Assembly (NCBI GenBank): GCA_963708045.1
Contig: OY970181.1
Location: 323,740 to 387,739 of the forward strand
Origin: an uncultured bacterium
GTDB taxonomy: Bacteria; Patescibacteriota; Patescibacteriia; CAIQCM01
Direction of reading: 5' to 3'
DNA length: 64,000 nucleotides
Shown here: in pieces, positions 3,213-49,380 of the stretch
Layout of the letters: each line of letters opens with the position of its first letter
How positions within the stretch are numbered: position 1 is the stretch's first letter
Program-made: the position numbers and the translations under genes
The notes under the pieces: model-generated
Database searches by the model: none
What the model was told of the DNA's origin: nothing
Seen by the model: the letters and a program-made list of their open reading frames with translations, nothing else

Positions 3213-3287
3213 GCGGGTATCGTATAGCGGCTATTATGTGTCCTTGCCAAGGACAAGATGAGAGTTCGACTCTCTCTACCCGCACCA
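3213..3287 (+). tRNA. tRNA-Gly(GCC), CCA encoded
   Basis: GCGGGTA acceptor pairing with TACCCGC, anticodon stem TGTCC/GGACA with loop TTGCCAA (anticodon GCC), T-arm GAGAG-TTCGACT-CTCTC, 3' ACCA. Confidence 0.75.
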
Positions 3288-3584: not shown

Positions 3585-4961
3585 TCAGAGAATTACCGAA
3601 ATCGTCAGTACTTTGTTTTTTAGCGTCAACCGGCTTTTCAAGTTCGTAAGCAACTCTCGTTTTTCGGTAATCGTCCCCTCGGTCAGCAAATAAGTTGCAT
3701 AAGCTCTAAGGTCAAAATTTTCTTTGGTCTTTTTATCCTCGCATTTCCCCAACGCAATCTTTCTAAACTTTTCGTACCTCGAAATCTCGGCAGCAAATTT
3801 ATGTTTTACCCCAATCTCATTCAAATCAAGTGTGTCGACGAGCTTCGTTAGCTGGTCAATTATTTCCTCCTCGCGCACATATCCGCATTGGCAATTTTTA
3901 TCTTTTGCTTTGGTACAACCGTAGTAAACATAGCGATGTGTTCCACCAGCTTTTTGCTCTTTGAATTTCTCGCAGGCGGTTACGCCCGACCCGCACAATC
4001 CGCAAGTAATGAGCTTCGTAAACGCGAACTCGCGATTGTTTTTGTTAATCTCGCTTCGGACAAGTTGCGCTTTAACCTTTTCAAAAAGCTCCGGCGTAAT
4101 AAGCGGCGTATGTTTGCCGGCATACCATTTTCCACTTCCGCGCGGATGTTCAAACACGCCGTAGTAAAAGGGATTCTTTAAAATAAGGTAAATATTTCCC
4201 AGCGCCAACGGCTTTCCATACTTGGTTTTAAAGTTAATATCGTATCGCAACCATTGATACAGTTTCCGCCCCGACCATCCATCGTTTCCGACTTTCTCAA
4301 ACATCTGCCGAACAATTGGCGCACGCACTGGATCAATTATCGCCTCGCACGGTTTATCTTTTATCTTCTCGTTCAAATATCCAGTCGGCGAAACCGCCGG
4401 ACGCAACCCCTGCTCGCATCGCGCCCTCATACCCCGCTTAACATTTTCGCTCTTGTTGTCATTTTCAAGCTTCGCTTGTGAGCAAAGGATCATCAGCATG
4501 AATTTCTCGCTCGGCGAGTTGGCGAATTTCTGGTTGAAAGTTCGTATCTCGATCAAGAGTTTTTGATCCATCAAATCGACCAGCGCCCCAAGGTCACCAG
4601 CATTCCGCGAAAGCCTGTCTGGTGCCCAAGTGATTATCCCACCAAACTTGCCCGCTCTGATGTCCTTGAGGAGCTCATTAAAGACCGGACGCTGGCCAAC
4701 CGCCTTGGCTGAATGGTTTTCTTTTCGAATCTCGGTTACTAGTAACCCCTCGCGCTCGGCAATCGCCAACATTTCTTTAATTTGGCTATCAATGGAAAGC
4801 ACCTGCATTTCCTCACTTTCGGTCGACTTCCGAGCGTATAGGCAATATCGGGTTTTAGGCATTATGGCGGCGTTTCCTTGGTTTTTGTCGTTCATACGAC
4901 CAAGTAATGCCGCAACCCTGTTGTGGCGTCTAGGCGGGGCTGTAGGTAAGTCCACTTTCAA
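3585..4961 (-). CDS. large serine recombinase (resolvase/integrase family with recombinase domain and zinc ribbon)
   Basis: N-terminal resolvase catalytic domain (YARKSTESE with catalytic Ser, DRLSRN), central recombinase domain, Cys-rich zinc ribbon (CGLCGSG...YYGCTKAKDKNCQCGY), C-terminal coiled region; probable true start at the internal Met (MPKTRYCLYARKS, about 4862). Confidence 0.85.
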   Translation of the reverse strand: MKVDLPTAPPRRHNRVAALLGRMNDKNQGNAAIMPKTRYCLYARKSTESEEMQVLSIDSQIKEMLAIAEREGLLVTEIRKENHSAKAVGQRPVFNELLKDIRAGKFGGIITWAPDRLSRNAGDLGALVDLMDQKLLIEIRTFNQKFANSPSEKFMLMILCSQAKLENDNKSENVKRGMRARCEQGLRPAVSPTGYLNEKIKDKPCEAIIDPVRAPIVRQMFEKVGNDGWSGRKLYQWLRYDINFKTKYGKPLALGNIYLILKNPFYYGVFEHPRGSGKWYAGKHTPLITPELFEKVKAQLVRSEINKNNREFAFTKLITCGLCGSGVTACEKFKEQKAGGTHRYVYYGCTKAKDKNCQCGYVREEEIIDQLTKLVDTLDLNEIGVKHKFAAEISRYEKFRKIALGKCEDKKTKENFDLRAYATYLLTEGTITEKRELLTNLKSRLTLKNKVLTISVIL

Positions 4962-5039
4962 AAATTAGCCCATTGAGCTATTCTTTAAGCACAACTTAAT
5001 ATTGCCTAAACCGCGCCGATGGCGAGGCATGGCAGAAAT

Positions 5040-5083
5040 CCCATGACAGATACTGAACCCCGCGTTTAGCGTCCTGTCATGGG
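5040..5083. repeat. inverted repeat/hairpin cccatgacag...ctgtcatggg upstream of the recombinase gene
   Basis: Perfect 10-bp arms seen in sequence; candidate recombination site or promoter element. Confidence 0.4.
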
Positions 5084-5133
5084 TAATATTCCGAAAGGAA
5101 TATTTGGCCGCAAGGCCTAGCTAGCGCGGGGCT

Positions 5134-5919
5134 TTGTGTATAATATTGACTCTTAAATTTATAAACACTATGAAAAAATATTTATCGGTTTTGCCCGCTA
5201 TTATTTTTTCTGTCTTTTTAATTCCGTCAACTATTGCAGTTTACGCATATAGTTTATCTGACACGGGTCAAACCGCATCCTTTACAGATACATATGGAGA
5301 GGACTCCGATTATCTTATTAATCCTCCTTCATACACTAAATTAAATTCGGCAGGTGAAACCGTGACTAGCGGCGAATGGGATATGGTGAAAGATAATCTG
5401 ACAGGATTAATTTGGGAAATGAAAACGGACGATGGAACAATTCATGACCAAAACAAACAGTTTAATAAGAGCGACACTCAAGCCGTTACGTCCGAATTAA
5501 ATTCAACAAAATTTGGTGGCTTTTCTGATTGGCGACTCCCGACAATTAAAGAACTTATAACAATAATTGATCATGATAAGTTATATCCATCCGCTGCAGT
5601 TAATACTGATTATTTCCCTAAATTGGTGGCAGCACCATATTGGTCTTCTACGAATCTTGCTGGTGGTGTAAATGTTGGATGGGCCGTTAATTTTAATCAT
5701 GGTAATCCTGAATTTGAGTATAGCAAAAACGTTTATCGCGTCATGGCCGTTAGGGGTACATCAGTTGGGTTGTCAGATCAGTTTGTAAATAATGGCGATG
5801 GGACCGTAGTAGATACTGATACTGGCTTAGTTTGGTCTTACGCTCCGTCAAGTAATGGCATGACATGGGACGATGCAATTTCATATAGTGAAAATTTATC
5901 ATTGTCCGGATTTGAATGA
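5134..5919 (+). CDS. secreted DUF1566 (WRLP-motif) domain protein, N-terminal fragment of a frameshifted gene
   Basis: Signal peptide/TM (MKKYLSVLPAIIFSVFLIPSTIAVYA); DUF1566 signature SDWRLPTIKEL; ORF ends at TGA 5917-5919 inside a second DUF1566 repeat. Confidence 0.6.
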   Translation: MCIILTLKFINTMKKYLSVLPAIIFSVFLIPSTIAVYAYSLSDTGQTASFTDTYGEDSDYLINPPSYTKLNSAGETVTSGEWDMVKDNLTGLIWEMKTDDGTIHDQNKQFNKSDTQAVTSELNSTKFGGFSDWRLPTIKELITIIDHDKLYPSAAVNTDYFPKLVAAPYWSSTNLAGGVNVGWAVNFNHGNPEFEYSKNVYRVMAVRGTSVGLSDQFVNNGDGTVVDTDTGLVWSYAPSSNGMTWDDAISYSENLSLSGFE

Positions 5920-7573
5920 TTGGCGTTTGCCCAGCCAGAAAGAGCTTTTTTCTATAGTTAATTACAATATTTTTGCACCAGTATTTGATAGAAATTATTT
6001 TTCGGTTCCATTAACATCGGCTTCTTACTGGACTTCAACAATATGCGGTGTTGAGGGTGATAAAAAATATGCCTACCGCATTGACGGTTACCAAGGAATT
6101 GGGGGTTGTATAAATACTCTGTTTGATAGTTCATCCATTTATGTGCGTGTTGTTCGTGGGGGGATTAATCAATTGACGCCAATTTGTACGTCTTGGACCT
6201 ATGGTGATTGGGGAACATGTGTAAACAACCAACGCTCGAGATCAATTGTTTCCTCAATGCCGTCGAATTGTATTGGCGGAATGCCCGTTTTAACCCAAAG
6301 TTGTCAACCTTCGCCCGTGGTATGTTCTTCGTGGACATATTCCGATTGGGGTATGTGCACAGAAGGACGACAGGCGAGATCTATAGCCTCAGCAACACCA
6401 ACGAATTGTTCTGGCGGAAATTCTGTATTAAGCCGTGAATGTAGTTCAGTGCCTGCGTGCACGGAAAATAATTGGACATCATCTCTATCGCCATCGTCGT
6501 GTCCTGCCATTGGACAGCAGACAAAACAATGGTCAAAAATAGGTCAATGTGATGGCGGTGTTTTCCACCAAACGCAAGAAACGATTTCATGCAATTATCA
6601 GATATCATCCTGCACGGATTTTATATATAGTGACTGGGGTGATTGCAGTTCAAGCGGCGTTCAATCAAGATTGATTTTGAACAGTTCGCCATCGAATTGC
6701 ACTGGCGGAAGTTCTGTCACAAGCCGGAGCTGTAATTATGTTCCTGCGTGTTCATCAGATATTTGGTCCTGCGGGAATTGGGGAGCTTGCAGTGCTGGGA
6801 ACATTCAATCAAGAATCTGCATAAAGACTTTTGACTGTCCTAGTGTACAGACGCCATCACCTGCAACAGAACAGAGTTGCACAACACAGCAAAATGTAGA
6901 ATCACAACCTCAAGCAACTAACAGCATTGACACGAATGTTAATACCAGCAATGCCGCTAATTTAAAAAGTGTAATCGAAGAAGAAACGGGCTTGGTTTCA
7001 TCGGTCGATAGAAATTTATCAAAGAAATTGGCTGGAAATATTTTGCTTCAAGTCGAAAATCATGGCCAAGCATGGTACGTTAATCCAACCAACCTAAATA
7101 AATATTATCTGCCTGACGGCCAAGCCGCTTATCAGGCGTTAAGAATTTTTGGTCTGGGAATAACCAATGCCGACTTAAGCAAGATACCAGTAGGGGTTGA
7201 AAGCCGTTTTTCCGACGCCGATAGCGATAATGACGGCTTGGCAGATAAGCTCGAGGAGGGATTAGGAACCGATCCCAACAATCCTGATACGGATGGGGAT
7301 GGTGTTTTGGACGGCGATGAGTTATTGAGTCGAGGTAGCAATCCATTGGGTACTGGCAAAATATCGACCGACAGTAACCTTGTTAGTAAATTGAGTGGTA
7401 AAATACTATTGCAAGTCCAATCAAGGGGTGAGGCATGGTATATCAATCCAAAAGATTCAAAGAGATATTATTTAAAAGATGGGAATGCAGCTTATCAGAT
7501 TATGCGCTTTCTCAGCTTGGGTATTACCAACGATAATATTCGAAAAATATCGGTCGGAATGTTGTCTAATTAA
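5873..7573 (+). CDS. continuation of the frameshifted DUF1566 protein: second DUF1566 domain, four thrombospondin type 1-like Cys repeats, thrombospondin type 3-like Ca-binding Asp repeats, two C-terminal about 60-aa repeats
   Basis: NDWRLPSQKEL continues the domain interrupted at 5919; four W-x-x-W-G-x-C...C..GG...R.C repeats (e.g. CSSWTYSDWGMCTEGRQARSIASATPTNCSGG); DADSDNDGLAD...DPNNPDTDGDGVLDGDE; duplicated LAGNILLQVENHGQAWYVNP.../LSGKILLQVQSRGEAWYINP... Confidence 0.6.
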   Translation: MQFHIVKIYHCPDLNDWRLPSQKELFSIVNYNIFAPVFDRNYFSVPLTSASYWTSTICGVEGDKKYAYRIDGYQGIGGCINTLFDSSSIYVRVVRGGINQLTPICTSWTYGDWGTCVNNQRSRSIVSSMPSNCIGGMPVLTQSCQPSPVVCSSWTYSDWGMCTEGRQARSIASATPTNCSGGNSVLSRECSSVPACTENNWTSSLSPSSCPAIGQQTKQWSKIGQCDGGVFHQTQETISCNYQISSCTDFIYSDWGDCSSSGVQSRLILNSSPSNCTGGSSVTSRSCNYVPACSSDIWSCGNWGACSAGNIQSRICIKTFDCPSVQTPSPATEQSCTTQQNVESQPQATNSIDTNVNTSNAANLKSVIEEETGLVSSVDRNLSKKLAGNILLQVENHGQAWYVNPTNLNKYYLPDGQAAYQALRIFGLGITNADLSKIPVGVESRFSDADSDNDGLADKLEEGLGTDPNNPDTDGDGVLDGDELLSRGSNPLGTGKISTDSNLVSKLSGKILLQVQSRGEAWYINPKDSKRYYLKDGNAAYQIMRFLSLGITNDNIRKISVGMLSN

Positions 7574-7582
7574 AAAAGATAT

Positions 7583-7873
7583 ATGAAGATAAATTATAAA
7601 ACAGAGCGTGGAAATTTTGATATAGAAATTACCGAGGGAAAGAGCGAGATTCTAGATGTGTATAATGATATTCGAATAGTTTATTCAATAAAAGTAAAGA
7701 ACACAGATAATCCATCTTGGGTTATAAATTTTTCCGACTTGATTGGGCGAATTGCAAAGGGGCAGAATAAGGAAAAATTGAACGATAAGATCGTCGATGA
7801 AGTTAAACGGCGAATTAATATGGACGAGACAGGAGATTTTTATATTGGTGATCCAACATTGGATTTAACTTGA
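7583..7873 (+). CDS. hypothetical small protein
   Basis: 96-aa ORF directly after the DUF1566 gene; no motif recognised. Confidence 0.4.
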   Translation: MKINYKTERGNFDIEITEGKSEILDVYNDIRIVYSIKVKNTDNPSWVINFSDLIGRIAKGQNKEKLNDKIVDEVKRRINMDETGDFYIGDPTLDLT

Positions 7874-7954
7874 AAGACAGCTGCCTCGTCATTGGCGTGT
7901 TGTATGCTTGTTAACGGTGGGCTGTTGGTGTATGGAGTAACATAGTCGCTTGTT

Positions 7955-8587
7955 TTGTTCAGAATTGTCGTTCTGAGTAGAAACAAGCGACGGAAACGGG
8001 TGCGAGCCCCGTACAGTCCATATATTAAAAATATGCACGAATCCGAAAAAATTGAAGAAGCAAAATATCATCTTTTGCGAATGAAAGATTCTTTAAACGA
8101 AGATGATATTTTTCGCTACGAATTAAATGCTTTTTTAGCATCTACACGTTCCGTTTTTCAATATGCGCTTGAAGAAATTCAACACCCTCCAACAGTCCCT
8201 AAAACATGGTATGACCAAGTTGTTAATCTGAGTAAATATGTTAAATTCTTTAAAGATAAACGCGATACGGTAATTCATCATAAACCAATAGAAACAGATA
8301 AAAATGTCGCTCTAGAAAATTTTGACACCGTACTCATAGAAGACGATGCAATCGCGATAGAAATACATGATTCAAATGAGGGTATTGTAGGGAGTTTTTC
8401 TACGATTAATACACCCCAAAATAGCGAAATAGGAGAAAGCGGTTCAAAAATTTCTTCAAGATGGTTTTTTGTCGATAGTCCGGTGGGTGATCCAAAAGAC
8501 AAGGAGGTCGTTTCGCTTTGTGAAAAATATTTGAAAGAGGCGGAATCTTTTGTTAGCGATGGTAAAACGAATGGATATTTAACCTAG
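7955..8587 (+). CDS. hypothetical protein (true start probably the internal Met near 8033)
   Basis: 210-aa ORF; N-terminal 26 codons are GC-rich and Arg/Lys-rich and likely spurious extension. Confidence 0.4.
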   Translation: MFRIVVLSRNKRRKRVRAPYSPYIKNMHESEKIEEAKYHLLRMKDSLNEDDIFRYELNAFLASTRSVFQYALEEIQHPPTVPKTWYDQVVNLSKYVKFFKDKRDTVIHHKPIETDKNVALENFDTVLIEDDAIAIEIHDSNEGIVGSFSTINTPQNSEIGESGSKISSRWFFVDSPVGDPKDKEVVSLCEKYLKEAESFVSDGKTNGYLT

Positions 8588-9146
8588 AATTATTCATAAA
8601 TATTTTTTTTGATCACCACTGATAGTTCAATAGCAATCACCAGACCAAAATAGTTGTTTATTGATCTGGTTAACCCGCTGTTAGAAGAACTGTGTCTGGT
8701 ATACGGGGTCCACTCAATAATTTGATGAGATAAGGTTTTTTGGGAATTACTGCTTAAGAAAGCCTAAAAGACAGTAAAATGAGACACCCTAAAATATTGA
8801 TTAATAGTGTCTCATTTGTCTCGTTTCTCAAAACAACTGTCGCATTTGTCGCATTTTGCCAAATCAACACCGACCTACTTGGGTCGGAAAGGTGGCCAAT
8901 CGAACCTCCTAAAACGCTTGTGGTGCTGGATAAGCGAAGTTCAAGACTGTGTCGGGGCACCAAAAATGATCTCAGTTCCCTGAGGTCATTTTTGTTTTGG
9001 CTCAGCGGGAAATAGTCATCATACGATAGCTGCGAGCGGGTTCGGCAAGAGCTTAATCTAGTTAGCCCGCCGATTATCTATTTCACGGGGGAATGTTTGT
9101 GTTTACACAAAAACTGCGCCAATCAAGATAGATCAGTAGTAAATAT

Positions 9147-9188
9147 AATTCTTCCCATAATGTCCGATCGGACATTATGGGAAGAATT
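9147..9188. promoter_or_regulatory. 42-bp perfect palindrome aattcttcccataatgtCCGATCGGacattatgggaagaatt at the 3' end of the regulator gene
   Basis: Seen directly; CGATCG core shared with palindromes at 9731 and 34037. Confidence 0.5.
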
Positions 9189-9720
9189 ATGTTGATGTTG
9201 TTATAAATAATAAAACCCACCTTTCAATTTTTAATAATTTAATGTATTGATTCATTTCTTTTGTGACATTAAAAGGCGTTGACCAAATACTTTTTTGAAT
9301 TTGTTTAAACCCCATCCTCTTAAGCGACCGTCTAAACATTGTTCTGGATTCTTTGGCCAACTCCGGTACATCAAAAGCGACGACAAGGTTTTTTCCTTTT
9401 GGCAGATATTTTCTCTTTTTAAAAATACAAATTTGCAGAGCGGCAATTTTGCCATGATCAGTTATTTTGACCAAGATATCATTATTTAATTTTTGTATTT
9501 CAATCCAGCCATTTTTATATATTTTACTAATTGGTTTAGGCAGGCCACCCGACTTATATTCAAGATATTGTCGCGCCGCACGCACGCTCATATTCCGCAT
9601 AAGAGAAGGGTAATTAAGAAAAAAGAATAGATCGTCAGTTTTTTGAAATATTTTAAGCAAAATCTCGGCTGTTACCGTTAGAGATTTTTTTGTTAAAAAT
9701 TTGATTCGTTTTTGCTCCAT
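9187..9720 (-). CDS. putative transcriptional regulator: N-terminal winged helix plus C-terminal Cas2-like/PaaX-middle-domain-like module
   Basis: C-terminal segment LVVAFDVPELAKESRTMFRRSLKRMGFKQIQKSIWSTP follows the Cas2/PaaX pattern (hydrophobic strand-D-hhhhh..R.R..L...GF...Q.SVW); N-terminal segment helix-turn-helix-like; start set at MEQKRIK (9720) since the longer ORF would run through the upstream palindrome. Confidence 0.45.
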   Translation of the reverse strand: MEQKRIKFLTKKSLTVTAEILLKIFQKTDDLFFFLNYPSLMRNMSVRAARQYLEYKSGGLPKPISKIYKNGWIEIQKLNNDILVKITDHGKIAALQICIFKKRKYLPKGKNLVVAFDVPELAKESRTMFRRSLKRMGFKQIQKSIWSTPFNVTKEMNQYIKLLKIERWVLLFITTST

Positions 9721-9730
9721 ATTATTTCTT

Positions 9731-9758
9731 CCTCTAATGCCCGATCGGGCTTTAGAGG
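9731..9758. promoter_or_regulatory. palindrome cctctaatgcCCGATCGGgctttagagg immediately upstream of the regulator start (candidate operator)
   Basis: Seen directly; 1 mismatch in 14-bp arms. Confidence 0.45.
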
Positions 9759-10241
9759 ATTTTGGTGTTGATAGCAAAATGTTTTTGCGATCCTTGATAT
9801 TTTTTAAATTAATTATTTTTTTATTTCGCGATTAACGACAATTTTTTTGATTACCATGATGACTGGTCGGCCGCTATGCAGCGTCAACCTCCATACTGGT
9901 AGATAGCAAAGAAAACGAATGATACAAATTACGCGTTGTTCACTGGTGCCATCCTTACTGATTCGTATATTTTGTGTTGCGTCGTTGTCTTAAGGCAATA
10001 AGAGTCGCATAAACGGCGGGGGCTTTCGCCCCCGCCGTAATGGCACTAATTTGTCGCGCTCCCGTTCTGGCCGTTTTGCGAGTGTTTAAAACCGCTGTCG
10101 TGTCCGTTTCGCCAGGAGCGGATGGATGTTTCAACAACGAATTTTCGGAGAGCTTCGGTGTGTTCGCCGGAAAGGTGAAAACGCGCGGCGAGCTCGCGGC
10201 ATTGGCCAGAAAGGAAGTCTAAATAGGTACTGGTTCTTTCT

Positions 10242-12176
10242 TCAGGCATTAGCATCACCCCCCTTCTTTTTAAATCGTTTGCCAATAATCACCGCGCCGA
10301 GGAGTAATAGCGGCGGCCCCACGGCAATCGCAACGAGCGACGCGCGTCGCGCAAGCGTCGGCGTCTTGCTTTCCTCGGGTGATTTGATAATCGCAAGATC
10401 GCTCGTCGTCGCGGGAATTAAAACGTTGTCACTGCCTTGTTTAACGAGCAATCCTTTAGCGCTCAGGCGCTCGCCTTTTGCGGCTTCAAAAATTGTTTTT
10501 ATGAGAATTGAATTGTCACTGTCGGCAATTCGTAATTTGCTCGCTGTTTTTTCCGCGATCACGCCTGTGACCGCGACAACTAAATTTAAATTATTTTCCG
10601 CGTCTTTAATTTCAATTTTTTTAATCGCCGGCGCTGTTCCTGATTTTATGGTCATTGCCGAGTCGGTCTTTACCAAAAGTTTTGGCATTGGCAAACTTTT
10701 TGCTGTTGACCAAGAACCATAAGCAGTAACCACGTCGCCAACCGCGGGCGATAGTTTTGAATTAAGCGCCAGCCGCACTTCAACCGAACGATTGGTTTCT
10801 TTAACCACGAACACGTCTTTGGCAATGACGTTTGGCGGAAAAATAACAGTGCCGCTCACACTTGTTGCGGACTTTGTGGTTGTTGTTTTGGGCGTTGACG
10901 GCGAAGATGTTGCTACTGTTTTTGCCGTTGCTGTTTGCGAAGTTTTTATTGTCGCGCTTTTTGTGGTAGATGATGTTGTCGCGGTAATTGTTTTTGCTGT
11001 CGCGTCCGCTCCTATATATAAGTTGTTAATAATAATGACATTATCGGCTTTGAGTAATTTAGAAATTTCATCGCTTTGCGTTTTAAAAAGATCAACCAAC
11101 CACTTAGTATCAATTTTTGTTGTCGGTTTAGTTGCGGTTGCTGCTACTTTGCTATTTGCCATTTGCGACTGGCCGTCCATCGGCGCGATGATATTTGCGA
11201 GCGCGGGCGTGGGCGTCTGTGTAACGGCAAAGTCATTAAAGTCAGAATTAGTATCAAGTCCGTCGGCGCGGCGAGCCAGCGAATAATTTTCATCTGGCGC
11301 CGGTGGATTATTTTCGTTGCTTTCCCAATCGCCGTAAGCAACAGAATCGGCTTCACGATTTTTATCGTCGCGAAGAATAACTAAGTCGCCAATATTATTT
11401 AATCGCGCGACACTGAGTTCAACTCTCATAAAGCCGCGCGGGAAAATTAATCCGGAAAGCGTTGCAATATTTTTTCCGGTTCCGTCGGCCAAGTGCCAGC
11501 CCGCAAGGTCAACGGCGTAATCGTCGGCGTCGTAAAGTTCCACCCACTCCGCCGTGTCGGACGGATTTGGCATTACTTCGTTTATCTTTATCGGCAAAAC
11601 AGAAACTGGTACGGTATTTTTTGCGACGGGCGGCGATGTTGTGTTGGTGTTTTCCGTCTCACCCGCGTTAACATTAGTATTTGAATTGGTGTTTGTATTT
11701 TGATTGGTGTTTGCTGGCGGCGCGTCTGTGGCGCTGTAAGTTTTTTGCGCGACAATGTCCGAGTCGGTATCGTTTTCAATTGTTATTTGATTGGCGACGA
11801 CGTAAACCGTGCCGCCGCCTGCGGCGAGCGAAATCGTGGACTGTTTCAGATCATAAGCGCCGGCATAGCCGCTACCTGCAATAATGTAATGTCCGTTTGC
11901 GGGGATTATCGCGCCGCTCGCAAAATTTTTTTTGTAATATTTTGTCCCGCTTGCACTTTTGTATTGAATAGACCATTCGCCGATTGCGATGTCTGTGCCG
12001 CCGGTATTCAAGATCTCAATAAATTCGTCGTCAGCCGTGACGCCACTCGCCTGAATTTGCCCGATGGATATTGGTGGTATCTCGGCCTGAGCGTAAAAGA
12101 GGAATAAGACAACGACAAGAAAAATATAAAAGTGCTTCATATATTTATATTTTCCCGCGTTCATTTTTTTATCCAA
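10242..12176 (-). CDS. secreted cell-surface protein with two lamin-tail domains, Thr/Ser-rich linker and C-terminal membrane anchor
   Basis: Signal peptide (MKHFYIFLVVVLFLFYAQA); lamin-tail-domain-like segments (DEFIEILNTGGTDIAIGEWSI... and INEVMPNPSDTAEWVELYDADDYAVDLAGWHL...); long T/S/K-rich low-complexity region; C-terminal hydrophobic segment plus KRFKKKGG tail. Confidence 0.6.
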   Translation of the reverse strand: MDKKMNAGKYKYMKHFYIFLVVVLFLFYAQAEIPPISIGQIQASGVTADDEFIEILNTGGTDIAIGEWSIQYKSASGTKYYKKNFASGAIIPANGHYIIAGSGYAGAYDLKQSTISLAAGGGTVYVVANQITIENDTDSDIVAQKTYSATDAPPANTNQNTNTNSNTNVNAGETENTNTTSPPVAKNTVPVSVLPIKINEVMPNPSDTAEWVELYDADDYAVDLAGWHLADGTGKNIATLSGLIFPRGFMRVELSVARLNNIGDLVILRDDKNREADSVAYGDWESNENNPPAPDENYSLARRADGLDTNSDFNDFAVTQTPTPALANIIAPMDGQSQMANSKVAATATKPTTKIDTKWLVDLFKTQSDEISKLLKADNVIIINNLYIGADATAKTITATTSSTTKSATIKTSQTATAKTVATSSPSTPKTTTTKSATSVSGTVIFPPNVIAKDVFVVKETNRSVEVRLALNSKLSPAVGDVVTAYGSWSTAKSLPMPKLLVKTDSAMTIKSGTAPAIKKIEIKDAENNLNLVVAVTGVIAEKTASKLRIADSDNSILIKTIFEAAKGERLSAKGLLVKQGSDNVLIPATTSDLAIIKSPEESKTPTLARRASLVAIAVGPPLLLLGAVIIGKRFKKKGGDANA

Positions 12177-13168: not shown

Positions 13169-14320
13169 GAATCCCTAATTTCAGCCATATTTTGATTATT
13201 ACCTTGGCTCTTGACGGATATTTTTGAATAGAGTATTATATCCACATTATCCACAGAGCCCGACATACTATGAGCAGTAACTTAACTCCTAATATGAAAG
13301 CCAGCGGCTAGCCGGATATTTTGTGTCCCAATGCCCGCTGGTTTGCCAGCGGTTTTCTTTTTAGAAAAATCAGTTCGGAAACTTTTTAGAGGGTGGCCCC
13401 TTACAAAAGATTCCGAAAACCTACTTCCGCGGAGGGCGGAAAGAGCAAGTCCGAATTTAGGAACGTTGACAACCAAGCAAAGAGTAATAAATGTAAGTAC
13501 GAATTTTGGTTTCCAAAAGAAATCAAAATTTCAGTTTTGTTAACGTACAAAACTGGAGCATCTAAAAATAACGTCAACGAATTTTTGTGGTTCTCGTCGC
13601 AATGGAGCAATCCAAAGCGACTACCGTCCTAGTATCAGACTGGGACGGATCCAGAATTCTCTGGAAGACATTAAGGGCGTACGGTGGATGCCTCGGCATG
13701 GAATGCCTATGAAGGACGTAGCAGCCTGCGATAAGTCACGGCGAGGTGGCAAGCAACCTTTGACCCGTGAATCTCCGAATGAGGAAACTCAATCCGATGG
13801 AAGATCGGATTATCTTGTGCTGAATATATAGGTACAAGAAGGGAACTCGGCGAAGTGAAACATCTCAGTAGCCGAAGGAAAAGAAAGAAAGGTGCAATTT
13901 TTATATCGCCTTTCGCGATTCACATGTCTTCGGATGTGTGTTCCGCGATCTGCGGTAAAAAGTTGTGCTCATTCCCCTAGTAGCGGCGAGCGAACGGGGA
14001 AGAGCTTAAACTCCAAAGTGTTAAGCATGAAAACGGGTGATATGTCGAAAGATGTGTTATCGCGTATCGTGTGGCGGTTGTAGGGCCTCATATACTATGG
14101 AGTGTTCAGACGTAAGCGTTGTTCGCCTGCATCGAACAAGCAAGGGTTACAAACGATATCTTCCCAAGCAGAACGGCCTGGAACGGCCGGCCATAGACGG
14201 TGACAGCCCGGTACGCGAATGGGGTTATCCCTTTGCAGTTTATGTTCTAGAGTAACACGGGACTCGTGAAATCCTGTGTGAAGTCGGGAGGACTTTCTCC
14301 CAAAGCTAAATACATTCCAC

Positions 14321-14360
<40 letters not shown>

Positions 14361-14980
14361 CAGCCCGGAAGGGCGATGAAAAGTATCTGAAACCGTATGC
14401 TTACAAGGAGTGAGAGTGGATAGCAATATCCATGATCGCGTTCCTATTGAAGAATGAGCCAACGAGTTTGCTGTATGTGGCAAAGTTTAAGCCCGAGAGG
14501 GCGTAGACGTAGTGAAAGCGAGCGTGAAAGCGCGTTCTCACTTATCAACTTTTGCGGTTTACCGCAGAAGTTGTTGAGTGAGTGAGTCGCATACACAAGA
14601 CCCGAAACCGGGTGATCTAGCCATGGCCAGGATGAAGTTTTACGAAAGTAAAATGGAAGTCCGAACACATAAGCTGTGCAACACTTTGTGATGAGCTGTG
14701 GCTGGCGGTGAAATTCCAATCGAACTCGGTAATAGCTGGTTCTCCCCGAAATAGCTTGAGGGCTAGCGTCGGTTAATAACTAATTGGTGGTAGAGCACTG
14801 AATGGGGAACGGTGGAGTGATCCTACGTTTCCCAACCAACCTCCGAATGCCAGTTAGTGTTCCCGACAGTCAGCACGTGGGGGCTAAGCTCCACGGTGCG
14901 CAACGGAAACAGCCGTTGATCTCCAACTAAGGACCTTAAATCTATGCTAAGTGGAAAAGGATGTGGAACGACTCAAACAA

Positions 14981-15011
<31 letters not shown>

Positions 15012-15818
15012 TAAAGAAAGCGTAACAGCTCACTGGTCGAGTTATTCTGCGCCGAAAATATACCGGGGCTAAGCATAGTTCCGAAGTTGAGGGTTCTATA
15101 ATTAACTTTATAGAGCGGTAGGGGAGTGTTTGAAACGCATTGAAGGCGAAGACGTGAGTCCCGCTGGAGTGTTTCGAAGTACGAATGTTGGCATGAGTAG
15201 CAAAAATTGATGTGAGAACCATCAACGCCGTAAGAGGAAGGTTTCCTGGGCAACGCAAATCGGCTCAGGGTGAGGCGATCCTAAGACGAGGCCGAAAGGC
15301 GTAGTCGATGGAAAAGCAGGTTAATATTCCTGCCCCTCAATGGGTCACTACCCAGACTGACGCATCAAAAATACACGGGCGCTCTTTGGTTATGCGCGTG
15401 TCTTAATTGGGCAACTGATTAGGACGCAGTCTGAACCGAAAGGGGAAGACAATCCGTGAATGTATGGTGCCCAGAAAACGTCTGGAGACTATCCTATTGA
15501 GTCCGTACCGTAAACCGACACAGGTCCTCGGGCACAAGTGTGCCAAGGCGGACGAGAGAAACATCGTTCAGGAACTAGGCAAAAAAGTGGCCGTAACTTC
15601 GGGATAAGGCCTGCCCTATCGCAAGATAGGGTCGCAGCGAGCGTCTATGAACCGACTGTTTATCAAAAACACAGGTCCCTGCTAAGTCGCAAGACGATGT
15701 ATAGGGGCTGATGCCTGGCCAGTGTCAGAACGTTAAGGGGAGATGTTGACTCCGCAAGGAGAAGGCATTGAACCGAAGCGCTGATGAACGCCGGCGGTAA
15801 CTATAACCGTCCTAAGGT

Positions 15819-16086
15819 GGACAACACTGCCTTAGTGAGGTAACAGACCTCCTTCGAACTTTGACTAGCCATTGTCAAAGAGGTAGAAGAAAATTTGGCT
15901 ATTTCGGTGAACCTCCTTGTTTAAAAACAAGGACAATACCGAGGCAACCTGCAATGTGCAGAGAGTCCGTAGAGACTACACGCCAAAGTTTAACAATTGG
16001 TTAAATAAGATATAGTCCGAACTGCTTAGTAATAAGCAGAGCGTGATTGAACACCACGCCATTACAAAGTGTAATGTAACAACAAG
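15819..16086 (+). ncRNA. group I intron in 23S rRNA (insertion after CCTAAGGT, E. coli position about 1917)
   Basis: Exon sequence CCTAAGGT | intron | AGCGTAATCCCTTGTCGGGTGAGTTCCGACC matches the uninterrupted 23S; 5' exon ends in T and intron ends in G; conserved group I core elements R (cagagagtccgtagagactacacgcc) and S (aagatatagtccgaac) are present; 268 nt, no ORF. Confidence 0.75.
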
Positions 16087-16369
16087 AGCGTAATCCCTTG
16101 TCGGGTGAGTTCCGACCCGCACGAATGGCATAACGAGTTCATAACTGTCTTGACGATGTACTCGGCGAAATTGCAAGTGGCGTGAAGATGCGCTGTACTC
16201 GCAGCTGGACGAAAAGACCCCGTGAAGCTTTACTACTCCTTGCCATTGGATCATGTTTACTTATGTTCAGCGTAGGTGGGAGCCGCAAGGCGCCAATGAG
16301 ACACCACCCTTATGTTGATATGATTCTTACTGCAAACCGTGAATCCGGTTAGCGGAACAGTGGCTGGAA

Positions 16370-16400
<31 letters not shown>

Positions 16401-16621
16401 CAGTAACGGAGGCGTTTACAAAGGTAGGCTTGGCTCGGATGGAAATCGAGCTCAAAGTGCAAACGCAGAAGCCTGCTTGACTGCGAGGGTGATGGCCCGA
16501 GCAGAGACGAAAGTCGAAGTTAGTGATCCGACGGTCCCTCAGAGGAGGGCCGAAGCTCAACAGACAAAAGCTACTCCGGGGATAACAGGCTGATCTTGCC
16601 CAAGAGTCCATATCGACGGCA

Positions 16622-16681
<60 letters not shown>

Positions 16682-16738
16682 TGGCTGTTCGCCAATTAAA
16701 GCGGTACGTGAGCTGGGTTCAGAACGTCGTGAGACAGT

Positions 16739-17114
16739 GAGAATACCCGCGCTGTCTAAAAATCAGATCCAAGTCGCAATTCACAAGATGCGAAAGGATT
16801 CCGGTGTTGTCGCAAGATAACACTGGAGCTAAATGCTGGAAAATCTGGTCCGATCTTCTTTGGAGAGAAGATCAAAGAACTCGCACTAGTCGCGCAAGCG
16901 ACTGACAACGTGACGAGCGCAGACAATCAGCAGGAAAGGTTCTTCCATTACACGTAGAACAATCAACAATGGAAAGAAAATCCTCAGAGACTACACGCCT
17001 GATAGCTAGAAACCCCTAGTGAAAGATATAGTCCGAACTCTATGGCGACATAGAGAGTGCATCAGAAATGATGCGCCGGTTCAAAATTTATTTTTTGAAT
17101 TCGCAACATAATTG
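16739..17114 (+). ncRNA. group I intron in 23S rRNA (insertion after GAGACAGT, E. coli position about 2593, the I-CreI-type site)
   Basis: Exon GTCGTGAGACAGT | intron | TCGGTCTCCTATCC; intron ends in G; R (cagagactacacgcc) and S (aagatatagtccgaac) elements shared with the first intron; 376 nt, no ORF. Confidence 0.75.
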
Positions 17115-17550
17115 TCGGTCTCCTATCCACTGCGAGCGTTGAAACTTGAAGGGATGCTTCCCTAGTACGAGAGGACCGGGAAGCACGAACCTCCCGTGTA
17201 CGTGTTGTCCTACCAAGGGCATGGCACGGTAGCGGAGTTCGGAGGCGATAAGCGCTGAAAGCATCTAAGCACGAAGCGCCCCCTAAGATTAGGTTTCGTT
17301 ATAGACTCCTCGGAGACGACGAGGTTGATAGGCAGTAGGTGTAAGGCCCGCAAGGGTTTGAGCCGAGCTGTACTAATCGGTCGAGTTCTCCAGGGAACTC
17401 TGGTAAAAAATCAGAGAACCACAAAAACGCGCTGAAGTTATTTCAGTTGCCGTACTTTACATTTAGTGAATATCGCGTCTTTTTTGATACGGTATTTGCG
17501 AACCAACGAGCGTAGCAGCGTCTTCGTTCTGTTATAAAATAAGTTCAGAG

Positions 17551-17670
17551 TCTTGGTGACCCAACCGCACTGGTCACACCCGTTCCCATCTCGAACACGG
17601 CAGTTAAGCAGTGCAGGGCTGATGATACTTGGGGCCAACCCGTCCCTGGGAAAGTAGGCCGTTGCCAAGA
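17551..17670 (+). rRNA. rrf: 5S rRNA
   Basis: TTGGTGACC...GGTCACACCCGTTCCCATCTCGAACACGGCAGTTAAGC...GGGAAAGTAGG...GCCAAGA; flanking processing stem aagttcagagtc/gaccctgaactt. Confidence 0.85.
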
Positions 17671-44160: not shown

Positions 44161-47100
44161 TTGCCAAAAAACGGTAATTTAACCTCTTCCCATCGGTATA
44201 AAAAATTATATATGGCCATCCCAAAATTTCCCGAACTTGAAGAGCAGATTCTTAAAGATTGGGATAAAAACGATATTTTTAACAAAACTTTGGCAAAACC
44301 CTCGCCAAAGGGGAATTTTATTTTTTTTGAAGGTCCGCCGACCGCGAACGGCAAGCCTGGCATTCACCACCTAATTGCCCGCCACTTTAAAGATGTCATC
44401 TTGCGTTATAAGACGATGAGTGGTTTTCACGTTGAACGAAAAGCCGGTTGGGACACGCATGGTCTTCCGGTTGAAATTGAAGTTGAAAAAAAACTTGGCT
44501 TTAAAAGCAAGCGCGACATTGAGGAATACGGCATCGCCGCTTTTAACAAACAGTGTCGCGAATCCGTTTGGCAGTTTAAACAGGCTTTTACCGAATTTAC
44601 CCACCGCTCCGGCTATTGGTTGGATTTAGAGCATCCGTATATCACCTACGATCCTAATTATATGGAAACGCTTTGGTGGATCGTTAAAAAAATAAATGAT
44701 CGCGGTTTTCTTTATGAAGCCAATCGCGTCGTGCCGCATTGTCCGCGTTGTGGAACAACGCTTTCGTCGCACGAACTGGCACAAGGGTATGCCGAAACCG
44801 AAGACACTTCTGTTTTTGTGCGCTTTAAAATTTTGGATGAGCGGTTTCCAAACACGAGTTTTCTTGTTTGGACGACGACGCCGTGGACGCTGCCCTCAAA
44901 CGTCGCTTTGGCTTTGGGTGAGAAAATTTCGTATTCGCTCATTGAACTTGCAGCGGGCGAGCGGCTTTTGCTCGCGACTGATCGGCTCGGCGTAATAGAC
45001 GGCGAATTTAAAAAAATATCAGAACATACCGGCAGTGAACTTGCGAATATTTCTTACGAACCGCTTTATAATTTTATTTCCTACGACGAAAAGAGTCATT
45101 ATACGGCTTTGGCTGATTTTGTTTCCACAACCGACGGCTCAGGCATTGTTCATATCGCGCCAATGTATGGCGCCGATGACTTTGCTTTGGGCGCGAAATT
45201 AAAATTGCCGGAAAAACATTTAATTAGCGAGCGCGGCGAATTTATGGAGGCGGTTAAGCCGTGGGCTGGAATGTTTGTTAAAAAAGCCGACCCGCTGATT
45301 ATTGAAGACCTTGCGAGCAGCGGCAAACTTTATAAAACAGAAAAAATAAAACACGAATATCCATTCTGCTGGCGCTGTAAAACGCCGCTCATTTATTATG
45401 CCAAGCCGTGTTGGTACTTTAAGACAACAGCGGTTGCGAGCGAAATGATCAAGGCCAACGAAACAATAAATTGGGTGCCGGAGCATATTAAGGAAGGGCG
45501 CTTTGGCGAGTGGCTTAAAGGTGTAAAAGATTGGGCGCTCACCCGCGAGCGTTATTGGGCAACGCCGCTTCCGGTTTGGAAATGTGCGGACGGTCACGTG
45601 ACCGTAGTTGGGTCGTATGATGATTTGGAAGAAAAACGTTTTACCGCCCCAGCACGACTTTTGCTAATGCGCCACGGCGAAGCGGAAAGCAATGTTTTGG
45701 ATATGATTGCAAGCGGCGAAGCTGGGCGCAAGGCGGATTTAACGGAACAAGGCGTTAAGATGGCCAAGTCAGCGGCAAAAAAATTAAGCAAAGAAAAAGT
45801 TGTGGCGATTTATGCTTCACCTTTTATGCGCACCAAAGAAACGGCTGAGCTGGTGGCAGAGACGCTTGGTCTGCCGGTTATATTTGACGACCGGCTTCGT
45901 GAAATAAATTCTGGGGCAATGGATGGAAAAACGGTTAAAGAATTTTACATCGCTTTTCCCGAGCCGTCCGACCGTTGGACGCACGCCCCTGAAGGCGGGG
46001 AAAATTTTTCCGAAACTAGAAAACGGATGATGGCTTTTGTTCGTGAAATAAACCTGAAACACGCAGGCGAAACCGTGCTTGTTGTCAGTCACGGTGACCC
46101 GCTCTACATTTTAGACTGTGTTTTTAACCGCGTGCCAGACGATAAGCTTAAAGAATGGCGCTATCCGGAATTTGCCCACCCAACCGAAGTAATCTTGCCA
46201 AACTGGCCAATAAACGACGATGGCGAGCTTGATCCGCATCGCCCTTATATTGATGAAATAAAAATTAAATGCGACAAATGCGGCAAAGAAGCGGCGCGCG
46301 TAAAAGACGTGATGGACGTGTGGTTTGATTCGGGAGCAATGCCGCTTGCTTCGTGGCATTATCCGTTTCAAAACAAAGAGCGCATAGACAAAGGCGTGTC
46401 GTTTCCCGCTGATTATATTTCTGAAGGCATTGACCAAACACGCGGTTGGTTTTATACGATGCTCGCGGTGTCAACATTGCTCGGCTACGACGCGCCGTAT
46501 AAAAATGTCATCACCCTAAATATGGTTTTGGACAAAAAGGGTTTTAAAATGTCCAAGTCCAAAGGCAACATCGTTGAACCGCAAAAGATTTTTTCCACTT
46601 TCGGTTCCGACGCCTTGCGTTTTTATTTCTTTTCCATAAATCAGCCGGGCGACTATAAAAAATACGACGACAAAGACGTGGACGCGGTCGTAAAAAAAGT
46701 TTTTCTTATCCTTTGGAATACGATGGAGTTTTGGAAAATGTCTAAAGACATGGACCATGAATCACGCACCATGGACCATGAACATATTATGGACGCTTGG
46801 CTTAGGTCGCGCACTGGAATACTCGTGAAGACGGTGACAGAAGAATTGGAAAAATATCATCCAACCGAGGCGAGCCGTGCCATTGCCGAATTTGTTAACG
46901 AACTTTCCACGTGGTATGTACGCCGTTCGCGCGATCGTCTGCGCACTGGCGCTTCCACCGAACCGCTCAAGGACGCGCTTATGACCGTCGCCAAACTGCT
47001 TGCGCCGTTTACGCCGTTTGTTGCCGAAGGACTTTACCGTGAACTTGGTGGAGAGCTGGAATCGGTCCACCTTTGCGATTGGCCGGAATATAAGGAAAAA

Positions 47101-47646
47101 GAAATTGACGCGGAACTTTTGCATGATATGGAAAGTATCCGCAAGATTGTTGAACTTGGTCATTCACTTAGGGACGACGCGCAAGTTAAATTGCGCCAGC
47201 CGCTTGCTGAATTTGAAATAGAAAAATTATCGCTCAAAAATAACGATGAATTGCTTCCGATTATTGCCGAAGAACTTAATGTCAAAGCTGTTCGCATTGC
47301 CGACAAAATTGAAGAGCGACAAAATTGGTTAAGCAAAACAATGTCTGGCTTTACTGCCGCCTTGCGCACCGAAATAACCACCGAGCTTAAACGCGAAGGA
47401 ATGCTTCGCGAGATTATGCGTCAGATAAATGATTTGCGCAAAGAAGCCGGGCTCACTGTTTCTGATCGCATTAAATTATATTTTGACGTTGATGATGTCA
47501 CGCTTAAGTCAGTGCTTACGACGGAAAAAGAACATTTGGCAACCGGTGCCCGCGCCGACGAAGTCGTCTTTGAGCCAACGGATGCCGCGCTTGCTCGCGA
47601 ATTGGAATTTGAAGGAGTGAAGGTTAAGATCGCGATTAAAAAGTAG
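44161..47646 (+). CDS. ileS: isoleucyl-tRNA synthetase (type 2) with an embedded histidine-phosphatase (phosphoglycerate-mutase-like) domain
   Basis: HIGH-type motif PGIHHLIARHF, KMSKSKGN, editing-domain and anticodon-binding regions. Between WKCADGHVTVVGSYDDLEE and LDPHRPYIDEIKIKCDKCG lies about 190 aa with LLLMRHGEAESN...LTEQG...IYASPFMRTKETAE...VLVVSHG (RHG phosphohistidine motif). Probable start at MAIPKF (about 44212). The ORF is continuous in one frame. Confidence 0.8.
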   Translation: MPKNGNLTSSHRYKKLYMAIPKFPELEEQILKDWDKNDIFNKTLAKPSPKGNFIFFEGPPTANGKPGIHHLIARHFKDVILRYKTMSGFHVERKAGWDTHGLPVEIEVEKKLGFKSKRDIEEYGIAAFNKQCRESVWQFKQAFTEFTHRSGYWLDLEHPYITYDPNYMETLWWIVKKINDRGFLYEANRVVPHCPRCGTTLSSHELAQGYAETEDTSVFVRFKILDERFPNTSFLVWTTTPWTLPSNVALALGEKISYSLIELAAGERLLLATDRLGVIDGEFKKISEHTGSELANISYEPLYNFISYDEKSHYTALADFVSTTDGSGIVHIAPMYGADDFALGAKLKLPEKHLISERGEFMEAVKPWAGMFVKKADPLIIEDLASSGKLYKTEKIKHEYPFCWRCKTPLIYYAKPCWYFKTTAVASEMIKANETINWVPEHIKEGRFGEWLKGVKDWALTRERYWATPLPVWKCADGHVTVVGSYDDLEEKRFTAPARLLLMRHGEAESNVLDMIASGEAGRKADLTEQGVKMAKSAAKKLSKEKVVAIYASPFMRTKETAELVAETLGLPVIFDDRLREINSGAMDGKTVKEFYIAFPEPSDRWTHAPEGGENFSETRKRMMAFVREINLKHAGETVLVVSHGDPLYILDCVFNRVPDDKLKEWRYPEFAHPTEVILPNWPINDDGELDPHRPYIDEIKIKCDKCGKEAARVKDVMDVWFDSGAMPLASWHYPFQNKERIDKGVSFPADYISEGIDQTRGWFYTMLAVSTLLGYDAPYKNVITLNMVLDKKGFKMSKSKGNIVEPQKIFSTFGSDALRFYFFSINQPGDYKKYDDKDVDAVVKKVFLILWNTMEFWKMSKDMDHESRTMDHEHIMDAWLRSRTGILVKTVTEELEKYHPTEASRAIAEFVNELSTWYVRRSRDRLRTGASTEPLKDALMTVAKLLAPFTPFVAEGLYRELGGELESVHLCDWPEYKEKEIDAELLHDMESIRKIVELGHSLRDDAQVKLRQPLAEFEIEKLSLKNNDELLPIIAEELNVKAVRIADKIEERQNWLSKTMSGFTAALRTEITTELKREGMLREIMRQINDLRKEAGLTVSDRIKLYFDVDDVTLKSVLTTEKEHLATGARADEVVFEPTDAALARELEFEGVKVKIAIKK

Positions 47647-47656
47647 TATAATCTAG

Positions 47657-47690
47657 CAAAAATAAAATGGCTCAAATGAGCCATTTTATA
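47657..47690 (+). terminator. terminator hairpin aaatggctcaaatgagccatttt after ileS
   Basis: Seen directly. Confidence 0.55.
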
Positions 47691-48161
47691 ATCGCTAAGC
47701 CCTTGACAAAACTGTGGATAAGTGTTATACTACTTCTTGTAAGGATGAACGACCGCCAATAAATTGAAAATTTAGGGAGAGAGACCCAAGGCCAATGGGA
47801 AAAAATGGCCACCTGATTCAGGCATAAGCCTAATCAAAGGACGCATTTGTTGTTGTCTCTAAAGACGAATACAAATGCGTCCTTTTTATTTTCCACGGGC
47901 GACGTGCAACGTGCCACGTGCCAACTCGCGACGACAGATGAGGAGAGGGAACGCTTGAGCAAACTCGCCTTCGGCGATCAGGCTCGGTGCGGCGTAAGGT
48001 ATGATTTGAATCGGTCTAACTGATTCGCTTCAACCCCAAGCCATTAACGGTGCTCGCTCCGGCGAAACACCTTCATTCCCTTTCTAATCCGTCTTCGTGA
48101 AACATTGAAGTGATTTTCTACCGGCGACTTAGTCGTCGGGAACAGTTTTCGGGAGGGTCAA

Positions 48162-48542
48162 ATGAATCTGAAGCAGATGCTTGATTACTGTGGTTACCAC
48201 GTGAATCCGCTTGAATGGATTGGCAAAAAATTCACCTTTGATCTGCTCGGGGTTGATGCGAGAGATAACTACGTCTTCACCGGTGAACCAATCGGGATGA
48301 ATGTACTTCCTCAGACTGTGGTTGGACTCATCACCGGGATCGCTCAAAGTGGCGGCGTTCGTTTGTTTGTCACCGTTCCCATTGTTCAGGCTTTCGGTGG
48401 CGCGGGTTCGCTCTCGCCCTACGAACTTCGGCTCAGGTATATTTTTCTTGAGCATACCGAAACTGGGCAATCAGTGGTTGTTTTCGACGAACAGCGCGGC
48501 CGGGAGTTTCTTTTGGGAGGCAGGTTGACAATTTCACCATAG
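48162..48542 (+). CDS. hypothetical protein
   Basis: 126-aa ORF in a GC-rich segment; overlapped by an antisense ORF (48129-48470) of similar length; orientation uncertain. Confidence 0.3.
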   Translation: MNLKQMLDYCGYHVNPLEWIGKKFTFDLLGVDARDNYVFTGEPIGMNVLPQTVVGLITGIAQSGGVRLFVTVPIVQAFGGAGSLSPYELRLRYIFLEHTETGQSVVVFDEQRGREFLLGGRLTISP

Positions 48543-49380
48543 ATCGCACCAGACGTCGTTGTCTAGATGCGAAAATATGAAGGAGGCAGGAGTGAGATAA
48601 AACAGCGCGGAGTGCGCACCCCAAGAAGTTAAGAGCTAGGCGTAAAAGCTGTATGCTTCAGACGGACTGGGGAAAAAATTCGGCCTGATGAGGGCTAGGG
48701 CTGCCAATCCCGACAAAAACTTGACGCCAGACCCAAGGTAAGGCACGAATCCGGGGGTGCTTACACAAAGTTTGCCATTGAAATGGCGAGCTATGTGTAA
48801 GCATATGTTTTTAGAACGTAATCTTGATTGCGTTCTGAAAACTTACTAGAATAAATAAATCCTCGCAGATATAGGATAAGAAATGAAAATATTTTTTGTC
48901 CCGTCTCCGCGAAGAAAATAGCGACGTTTGAAAATGCGAGATTTCGCATACGTTCGCTAATGCGGAACGAGTGAGAGGTGGGAAGATGATAAGCCCAGTG
49001 ACAGATCCGTTTGATGCTTTGAATTTTTTCAACGCCGAGCTTGGTCCGGATGGAGAAGGGGGGCACGACCTTGGCTTGGCCGCCGACTCCGATGGTATCC
49101 ATCGGGATACTGATTACGAGCAAGAAGTGCTGACCGCTATGCGTCGGGACGAATCGGAAATTCTTCTGAATCAGCCACGTGCTACGTTTGTCGGGCGAAA
49201 AAAAGGCTCGCCGCGGTTTACTCGCGCCGACCGAAAACTGCTTGAGTGCAGGTAAGACTCAACCCTTTACGCCCCACACCAACCAGCCGATTCGCGGCCG
49301 TTGGTGTGGGGAAAAGTTTTTAGAACGGAATTATTATTTTTTCCGGTCTGAAAACTTTTTGGACATTGTTTCCTCTGTAT

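Follow-up and report, generated by a model that had tools for sequence, protein, structure and literature searches.

The Lcl protein of Legionella pneumophila carries a binding domain of the Pfam family PF07603 (Lcl_C, also named DUF1566) on a repetitive surface stalk. Only one such domain is present in Lcl; it is located at the C-terminus, on a collagen-like triple helix, and binds sulphated glycosaminoglycans, the ligands of Lcl on the host (PMC11162425). DUF1566 domains are reported to adopt a C-type-lectin fold and are often targeted by diversity-generating retroelements (DGRs) (PMC11661182). Thrombospondin type 1 repeats (TSRs), such as those of properdin and TSR2-3 of thrombospondin-1, are small, elongated, three-stranded units that are stapled by disulfides and arranged in tandem in extracellular proteins. 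The TSP1 domain is treated as an animal domain that was passed to apicomplexans (PMC3417536). Thrombospondin type 3 (TSP3) repeats with Asp-rich DxDxDxDG loops are found in the B domain of the staphylococcal protein Bap (PDB entries 7c7r/7c7u). The locus described here lies in a 64-kb stretch of contig OY970181.1 from an uncultured bacterium (hereafter, the window) and occupies positions 5170-7573 of its + strand. It probably (with a probability of about 0.75) corresponds to a single gene encoding a Sec-exported, adhesin-like modular cell-surface protein with a head-stalk-anchor layout, the gene being split by one extra nucleotide that is not programmed. Whereas Lcl has one C-terminal domain on a collagen-like stalk, this protein has two N-terminal Lcl_C domains on a Cys-rich stalk.

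Two open reading frames (ORFs) of the + strand overlap by 47 nt: ORF1 (5134-5919 or 5170-5919, depending on the start codon) and ORF2 (5873-7573), which is in the +1 frame. Their products were called as two separate genes on the source contig (1,188,223 bp). Removing one base near the junction gives a single protein of 800 amino acids (aa), and 5170-7573 is one gene of 800 codons once this nucleotide is removed, which bears out the frameshift-split gene proposed by the initial annotation. When the frames are scanned separately, positions 1-36 of the Lcl_C profile are covered by the end of ORF1 (nt 5800-5904) and positions 41-117 by the beginning of ORF2 (nt 5909-6157, E 5.9e-12). The break therefore falls inside the second DUF1566 domain, as had been proposed, leaving its N-terminal third in one frame and its C-terminal two thirds in the other. 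The gene likely starts at ATG 5170 rather than at TTG 5134, the start initially retained. From this ATG, ORF1 (5170-5919) encodes 249 aa that include a signal peptide, the first Lcl_C domain and the first third of the second one, and ends at a premature TGA (5917-5919). The Sec-type signal peptide, MKKYLSVLPAIIFSVFLIPSTIAVYA (5170-5247), was recognized by direct reading of the sequence: it has a basic n-region, a hydrophobic core and small residues at -3/-1, with a cleavage site before YS. ORF2, as called, encodes 566 aa without a signal peptide of its own. As assembled, only the 249-aa fragment could thus be exported.

The two DUF1566 modules noticed at the outset are clearly recovered: a Pfam search with the repaired 800-aa protein detects Lcl_C twice (E 7.6e-51, 171.8 bits versus a cut-off of 34.9), and NCBIfam adds nothing further. 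The first domain (5383-5754) is complete (E 2.2e-28, profile positions 2-117 of 117) and belongs to a family with a C-type-lectin-like fold. No match to the N-terminal domains was found among PDB sequences with phmmer at E ≤0.01. By analogy with Lcl, the ligand of the head would most likely be a glycan or a polyanion on a host cell. The domains were also considered as candidate targets of a DGR. No second copy of any Lcl_C-coding DNA, and therefore no template repeat, is present in the 64-kb window, and this candidate was rejected.

The heads are followed by a Cys-rich region made of five units, and not four as first counted. Three of them are canonical units of 40-41 aa with four Cys: R1 (6185-6304), predicted to have a TSR-like fold, R2 (6323-6442) and R4 (6611-6733). 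A divergent four-Cys unit, R3v (6458-6592), carries a Lys in place of an invariant Arg and forms the most conserved block of columns among relatives. The last one, R5v (6749-6880), is a variant with six Cys that aligns column for column with canonical units of relatives; this type of variant is itself repeated in the protein P0123. The motif W-x-x-W-G-x-C initially given for the repeats is revised to C-x2-W-x-Y-x2-W-x2-C...Q-x-R...P-x2-C-x-G-G...C. The consensus of the unit is PxCTSWTYSDWxxCxxNGxQxRTIxSSxPSxCxGGNPxLxQSC, in which C3, W11, C14, R21, P28, C31 and C42 are invariant, W/F6, Y8 and W11 form a conserved aromatic set and Q19 is near-invariant. A linker rich in Ser, Thr, Asn and Gln (6881-7015) separates R5v from the C-terminal part.

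Used alone as a query, the Cys-rich region retrieved only five proteins, whereas 1,913 clusters reached E ≤1e-3 in a profile search of 1.84 billion representatives, single proteins carrying as many as 14 copies of the unit. No Pfam family covers the repeat, even in proteins with 11-14 copies. The five-unit block is kept at 49-61% identity beneath other heads, which are of the beta-helix/NosD type (P0016, P0022, P0023, P0031 and P0054), DUF1566 domains or a DUF7748-like region. The tails found after the stalk in relatives are also variable: an SH3_3 domain (E 5e-12), a coiled coil with a hydrophobic tail, or two modules of 60 aa, the latter pair being present at the C-terminus of P0016, P0023 and P0033. 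P0001 (724 aa, ENA metagenome scaffold ZHAN22-2_20044) shares with the product of the split gene a signal peptide, two Lcl_C domains and the Cys-rich stalk, with 53% identity across 73% of the protein, but differs in its C-terminal domain. None of the listed relatives combines all three parts in one protein. The architecture had been described as unusual for bacteria, which goes too far: all three modules occur commonly in Patescibacteria, and only their combination is rare. Another member of the stalk family, the metagenomic protein P0246 (3821 aa), carries an N-terminal type IV secretion system (T4SS) pilin/TrbC domain, LVIVD repeats and 14 Cys-rich repeats; the Cys-rich repeat is thus also present in pilin-fused proteins.

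The C-terminal part is a cassette made of two 60-aa alpha/beta modules, M1 (7016-7195) and M2 (7379-7558), which flank two bacterial TSP3 calcium-binding loops (7211-7351). The Asp-rich loops were rightly recognized as TSP3-like by the initial annotation: TSP3_bac (PF18884) is detected twice in the repaired protein (35.6 bits versus a cut-off of 25, E 8.1e-9). The domain order then given also holds overall, except that the loops are located between the two modules and not before them. The AlphaFold2 model of the cassette is one compact unit (pLDDT 89.6, pTM 0.81), in which each 60-aa module is predicted to form a helix, a three-stranded sheet, a helix, a strand and a short helix. The modelled TSP3 segment superposes on that of Bap (7c7r/7c7u) with 0.6-1.6 Å rmsd and 45-48% identity, so that the loops resemble those of the Bap B domain in both sequence and predicted structure. 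Unlike other bacterial TSP3 repeats, they do not form a long array but a short clamp between two modules. The 60-aa modules match no Pfam family. Relatives of the cassette are found in at least 1,566 proteins, essentially all annotated as hypothetical proteins of Patescibacteria, with variable partner domains, and the cassette acts as a portable unit that can be placed at either end of a protein. In many Patescibacteria proteins of about 330 aa (P0183, P0192, P0208 and P0158), it directly follows the signal peptide at the N-terminus and precedes variable domains that are PsbP_2-like or PHA_gran_rgn-like. The best relatives of the C-terminal part of the split gene product come from Falkowbacteria, Komeilibacteria, Buchananbacteria and other Patescibacteria, and the host of the gene belongs to Patescibacteria (the candidate phyla radiation, CPR) and is Falkowbacteria-like.

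Taken together, the protein could be organized as follows. By analogy with Lcl, the two tandem Lcl_C/DUF1566 domains, with their C-type-lectin-like fold, would form the outermost tip and bind the ligand. They would be borne by an extended stalk of five TSR-like units of about 45 aa, which are modelled as three-stranded and would be stapled by disulfides. After the stalk and a flexible polar linker, the C-terminal cassette, i.e. an alpha/beta module, the Ca2+-binding TSP3 loops and a second alpha/beta module, would keep the protein attached to the cell envelope. The product of the split gene has neither a membrane anchor nor a sorting motif or lipobox. As the protein carries no other anchor and relatives have an SH3_3 domain or a hydrophobic tail at the same place, the cassette may retain it on the envelope.

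Several observations count against this reading. Ligand binding by the heads is proposed by analogy. Retention by the cassette is likewise deduced from the organization of its relatives, and its 60-aa modules have no neighbour of known function in either structure or sequence, the TSP3 segment alone having a neighbour in the PDB. For the stalk, the repaired 800-aa protein gives no match to TSP_1 in Pfam at E ≤1; single repeats reach only sub-threshold values (ELAPOR1_C 0.0039, TSP1_ADAMTS 0.043, PTN_MK_C 0.059 and TSP_1 0.15), and a profile of 57 repeats has no match among PDB sequences at E ≤10. Even in proteins with 11-14 copies of the repeat, TSP_1, TSP1_ADAMTS and TSP1_spondin all remain below threshold. 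Comparison by hhalign of the 57 close repeats with eight TSRs, two of which were checked against their PDB entries, gave a weak match (probability 7.8%, E 0.0044). The AlphaFold2 model of the stalk is itself of moderate confidence (mean pLDDT 72.9, pTM 0.29).

The likeness of the units to TSRs nevertheless stands in part. In the AlphaFold2 model, which was built from an alignment of 18 sequences, each unit has three strands, with pLDDT of 75-92 in units 1-3, and the elongated three-stranded fold typical of TSRs is thus predicted, on a model of mean pLDDT 72.9. A Foldseek search of the PDB with this model ranked properdin first, as the sole match under E 1e-3 (1w0r, E 6.7e-5, probability 0.98), followed by more properdin chains, TSR2-3 of thrombospondin-1 (3r6b, probability 0.99; 7yyk) and TSR-containing complement proteins. 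When 140 diverse repeats were compared with the TSRs by hhalign, the probability rose to 45.7% (P 2.1e-4, 39 collinear columns) with a score of 20.9, above all 31 null comparisons (a reversed control scored 10.3, and none of 30 column-shuffled controls exceeded 15.7). This alignment places C14, R21, P28, C31 and C42 on C1, the central Arg, the Pro, C4 and C5 of TSRs, respectively, and, judging from these columns, a C14-C42 bond would mimic the C1-C5 bond of TSRs. Features shared with TSRs are the small size, the tandem use in extracellular proteins, a strand A with aromatic residues, a strand B with conserved Arg/Gln and the collinear series W..C..G.Q.R..P..C.G..C. The units differ from TSRs by their four invariant Cys (C3, C14, C31 and C42) instead of six Cys in three disulfides, the second Cys of the TSR 'CSxTCG' motif being missing and the six Cys of R5v being spaced differently. 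They also have a single invariant Arg (R21) next to the near-invariant Q19, i.e. a reduced Trp-Arg ladder at best. The resemblance to TSRs holds at the level of the predicted fold and weakly at the level of sequence profiles, whereas a eukaryotic TSP1 family label cannot be kept for the units: the profile search yielded no TSP_1 match, an outcome named beforehand as decisive against it. The units possibly share a remote ancestry with TSRs while remaining outside Pfam TSP_1, but it is doubtful that they represent a genuine, ancient bacterial homologue of the TSR. As far as seen, the units occur only in Patescibacteria-type proteins. No description of bacterial repeats of this kind was found in the searched literature. 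The fold search and the profile comparison, which both point to TSRs, could also indicate that the units are true eukaryotic TSRs gained by horizontal transfer. This is very unlikely, as none of the three TSR profiles reaches its threshold, the units have four Cys and not six, one Arg and not R-x-R-x-R, and W-x-Y-x2-W in place of W-x2-W-x2-W, and the family is large and diversified inside Patescibacteria, unlike a recent import.

The nature of the break was examined on the DNA. Alignment with the locus of P0001 (L001), the closest intact relative (65% DNA identity), reveals exactly one extra nucleotide, in GGATTT[G]AATGATTGG. The site spans 5905-5914, for an intact reading ...SLSGF/L-NDWRLP, and the extra base is most likely G 5914 or one T of TTT 5911-5913. 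At the junction, where SLSGF meets NDWRLP in the window, P0001 has SLSLAGYTDWRLP; the DNA of the window is GGATTTGAATGATTGG with the extra base and would be GGATTTAATGATTGG or GGATTGAATGATTGG without it. The statement that no homopolymer lies nearby is correct for long runs, but short ones are present (AAAA 5891-5894, TTT 5895-5897 and TTT 5911-5913), A4 and T3 being the longest; no run of at least six identical bases and no short tandem repeat is found at the junction. Since the two frames share 47 nt and the 0 frame runs into a stop, and since a slippery-looking heptamer lies in the frame of ORF1 (A_AAT_TTA, 5894-5900, the only one), the shift could be taken for programmed +1 ribosomal frameshifting, for slippage during transcription or for a phase-variation switch, the last having been raised by the initial annotation. 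However, joining ORF1 to ORF2 requires a +1 shift, whereas the heptamer would yield -1, into a frame closed by stops, and no +1 re-pairing of the tRNA is possible on GAA-TGA or TTT-GAA. Moreover, intact relatives and the copy described below are read through without any shift. As the junction offers no slippery site, long homopolymer or repeat tract, both programmed frameshifting and phase variation were dismissed as extremely unlikely. Recoding of UGA (genetic code 25) was rejected as well: code 11 leaves long ORFs uninterrupted, and the Lcl_C domain resumes in a different frame.

An uninterrupted copy of the gene, of the kind that had been proposed as a check, exists in an independent read-based assembly. 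The protein of 96 aa encoded directly downstream of the split gene (7583-7873) is found, identical, on a 3,473-bp Logan contig of the run ERR15459707, where the preceding gene has 2403 nt and encodes 800 residues with matches to Lcl_C and TSP3_bac. It ends 9 nt ahead of the 96-aa gene, as in the window, in which the interval 5170-7573 is one nucleotide longer (2404 nt). The gene is thus not generally dead, and the split is specific to this assembly or strain and reflects either an error of the consensus or a null allele. Exact look-up was done for nine plausible one-base repairs, leaving aside 14 less plausible ones; none was found in the collection and none equals the Logan protein, so that the Logan copy probably comes from another haplotype that also differs elsewhere and gives no direct testimony for this strain. 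A junction-spanning DNA pattern with a variable gap had no match in the JGI metagenomes. Assembled sequences, and not reads, were used to weigh the two explanations. It is slightly more probable than not that the extra nucleotide is an error of the consensus or assembly and that the organism carries an intact 800-aa gene: the lesion is single, all domains are otherwise intact, the independent assembly is uninterrupted and one nucleotide shorter in the same context, and the source is a single 1.19-Mb contig. Assemblies of this kind are often obtained from long reads, and their residual errors are mostly indels. Conversely, the T3 of the site is an untypical place for a long-read indel error, the intact copy may stem from another strain, and the split gene is the only one detected in the window, which indicates a low rate of assembly indels. 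The gene map of the window is otherwise compact, and its four other pairs of overlapping same-strand ORFs (NTPase/NUDIX, Rpe/RpiB, YkuD/AtpI-like and DUF7670) are complete, unrelated genes. The same atypical context, the variation of the locus within the population suggested by an apparently different haplotype, and a location in a low-G+C stretch beside a large serine recombinase and a tRNA-Gly, as in variable islands, make it quite conceivable, if short of an even chance, that the frameshift is instead a real, recent, strain-specific null allele of a gene for a surface protein that is dispensable and encoded on an island. Against such an allele, the rest of the 2.4-kb gene shows neither a second lesion nor decay, and all modules keep every conserved position. 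The frameshift is a routine matter of annotation only, which calls for merging or flagging the two ORFs.

The single split gene proposed here is preceded by a LOOT RNA (Rfam RF03000; 5003-5118, + strand, 77.1 bits versus a gathering score of 46.4). It ends 51 nt upstream of ATG 5170, in the gap that separates the gene from that of the serine recombinase, and is divergent from the latter. Two related genes likewise have a LOOT RNA upstream on their own strand, at 1473-1598 in L001 (before P0001) and at 2277-2402 in L027 (before P0054). In both loci, one unrelated small gene lies between the RNA and the stalk-bearing gene, and gene callers took the RNA itself for coding sequence, giving the N-terminus 'MWSLPERALGDPKGSPPTGDLFCK'. 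None was found in six other loci with stalk genes and seven loci with cassettes (about 118 kb). The LOOT RNA of the window could be a 5' leader or a landmark of a mobile element.

The G+C content around the gene is 0.36-0.43, versus 0.47-0.49 elsewhere in the window. The low-G+C stretch (about 4000-10000) contains the split gene and small orphan ORFs and adjoins a tRNA-Gly(gcc) gene (3213-3287) and the gene of the large serine recombinase (3585-4961, divergent from the split gene), which has Resolvase, Recombinase and Zn_ribbon_recom domains. This stretch is probably an integrated island, although no att-like direct repeats were found around it. Just past it, a gene (10242-12176, - strand) encodes 644 aa that include two lamin-tail domains (LTD, E 5.9e-22); its product is likely another surface protein. 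A near-perfect palindrome without spacer (26+26 nt, 96% complementary, 9142-9193) lies at the 3' end of a PaaX/Cas2-like gene (9187-9777, - strand). Further downstream, two group I introns (15809-16039 and 16729-17055) break up the 23S rRNA gene (13661-17395), behind which lies a 5S gene (17552-17670); Rfam detects no 16S gene in the window. A 1161-aa ORF (44161-47646, + strand), which resembles an aminoacyl-tRNA synthetase and reads like IleRS, contains an apparent histidine-phosphatase-like insert (…LLMRHGEAESN…VSHGDPLYIL…), seen by eye in the translation only. Between this gene and that of a P-type ATPase, about 2.1 kb (47650-49760) yielded neither a convincing ORF nor a match in Rfam.

Attachment to other cells is the way of life of Patescibacteria, and, to our knowledge, the proteins that serve it are almost wholly uncharacterised. 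The gene described here displays a head-stalk-anchor layout built from three exchangeable parts. Two of these, the stalk unit, with about 1,900 relatives, and the cassette in which TSP3 loops are enclosed by two modules, with at least 1,566, have no family in Pfam or NCBIfam; defining both would improve the annotation of thousands of 'hypothetical' CPR proteins. The repeated placement of LOOT upstream of such genes gives this orphan RNA its first concrete genomic association to test. In addition, the stalk unit could be used to test whether the thrombospondin type 1 fold has a relative among prokaryotes. If the unit were truly an ancient homologue of the TSR, Patescibacteria would constitute a large unannotated reservoir of this fold (about 1,900 clusters at 50% identity), located beside an unannotated envelope-binding cassette and, for some genes, preceded by LOOT, and a fold regarded as an invention of animals and apicomplexans would be bacterial too.

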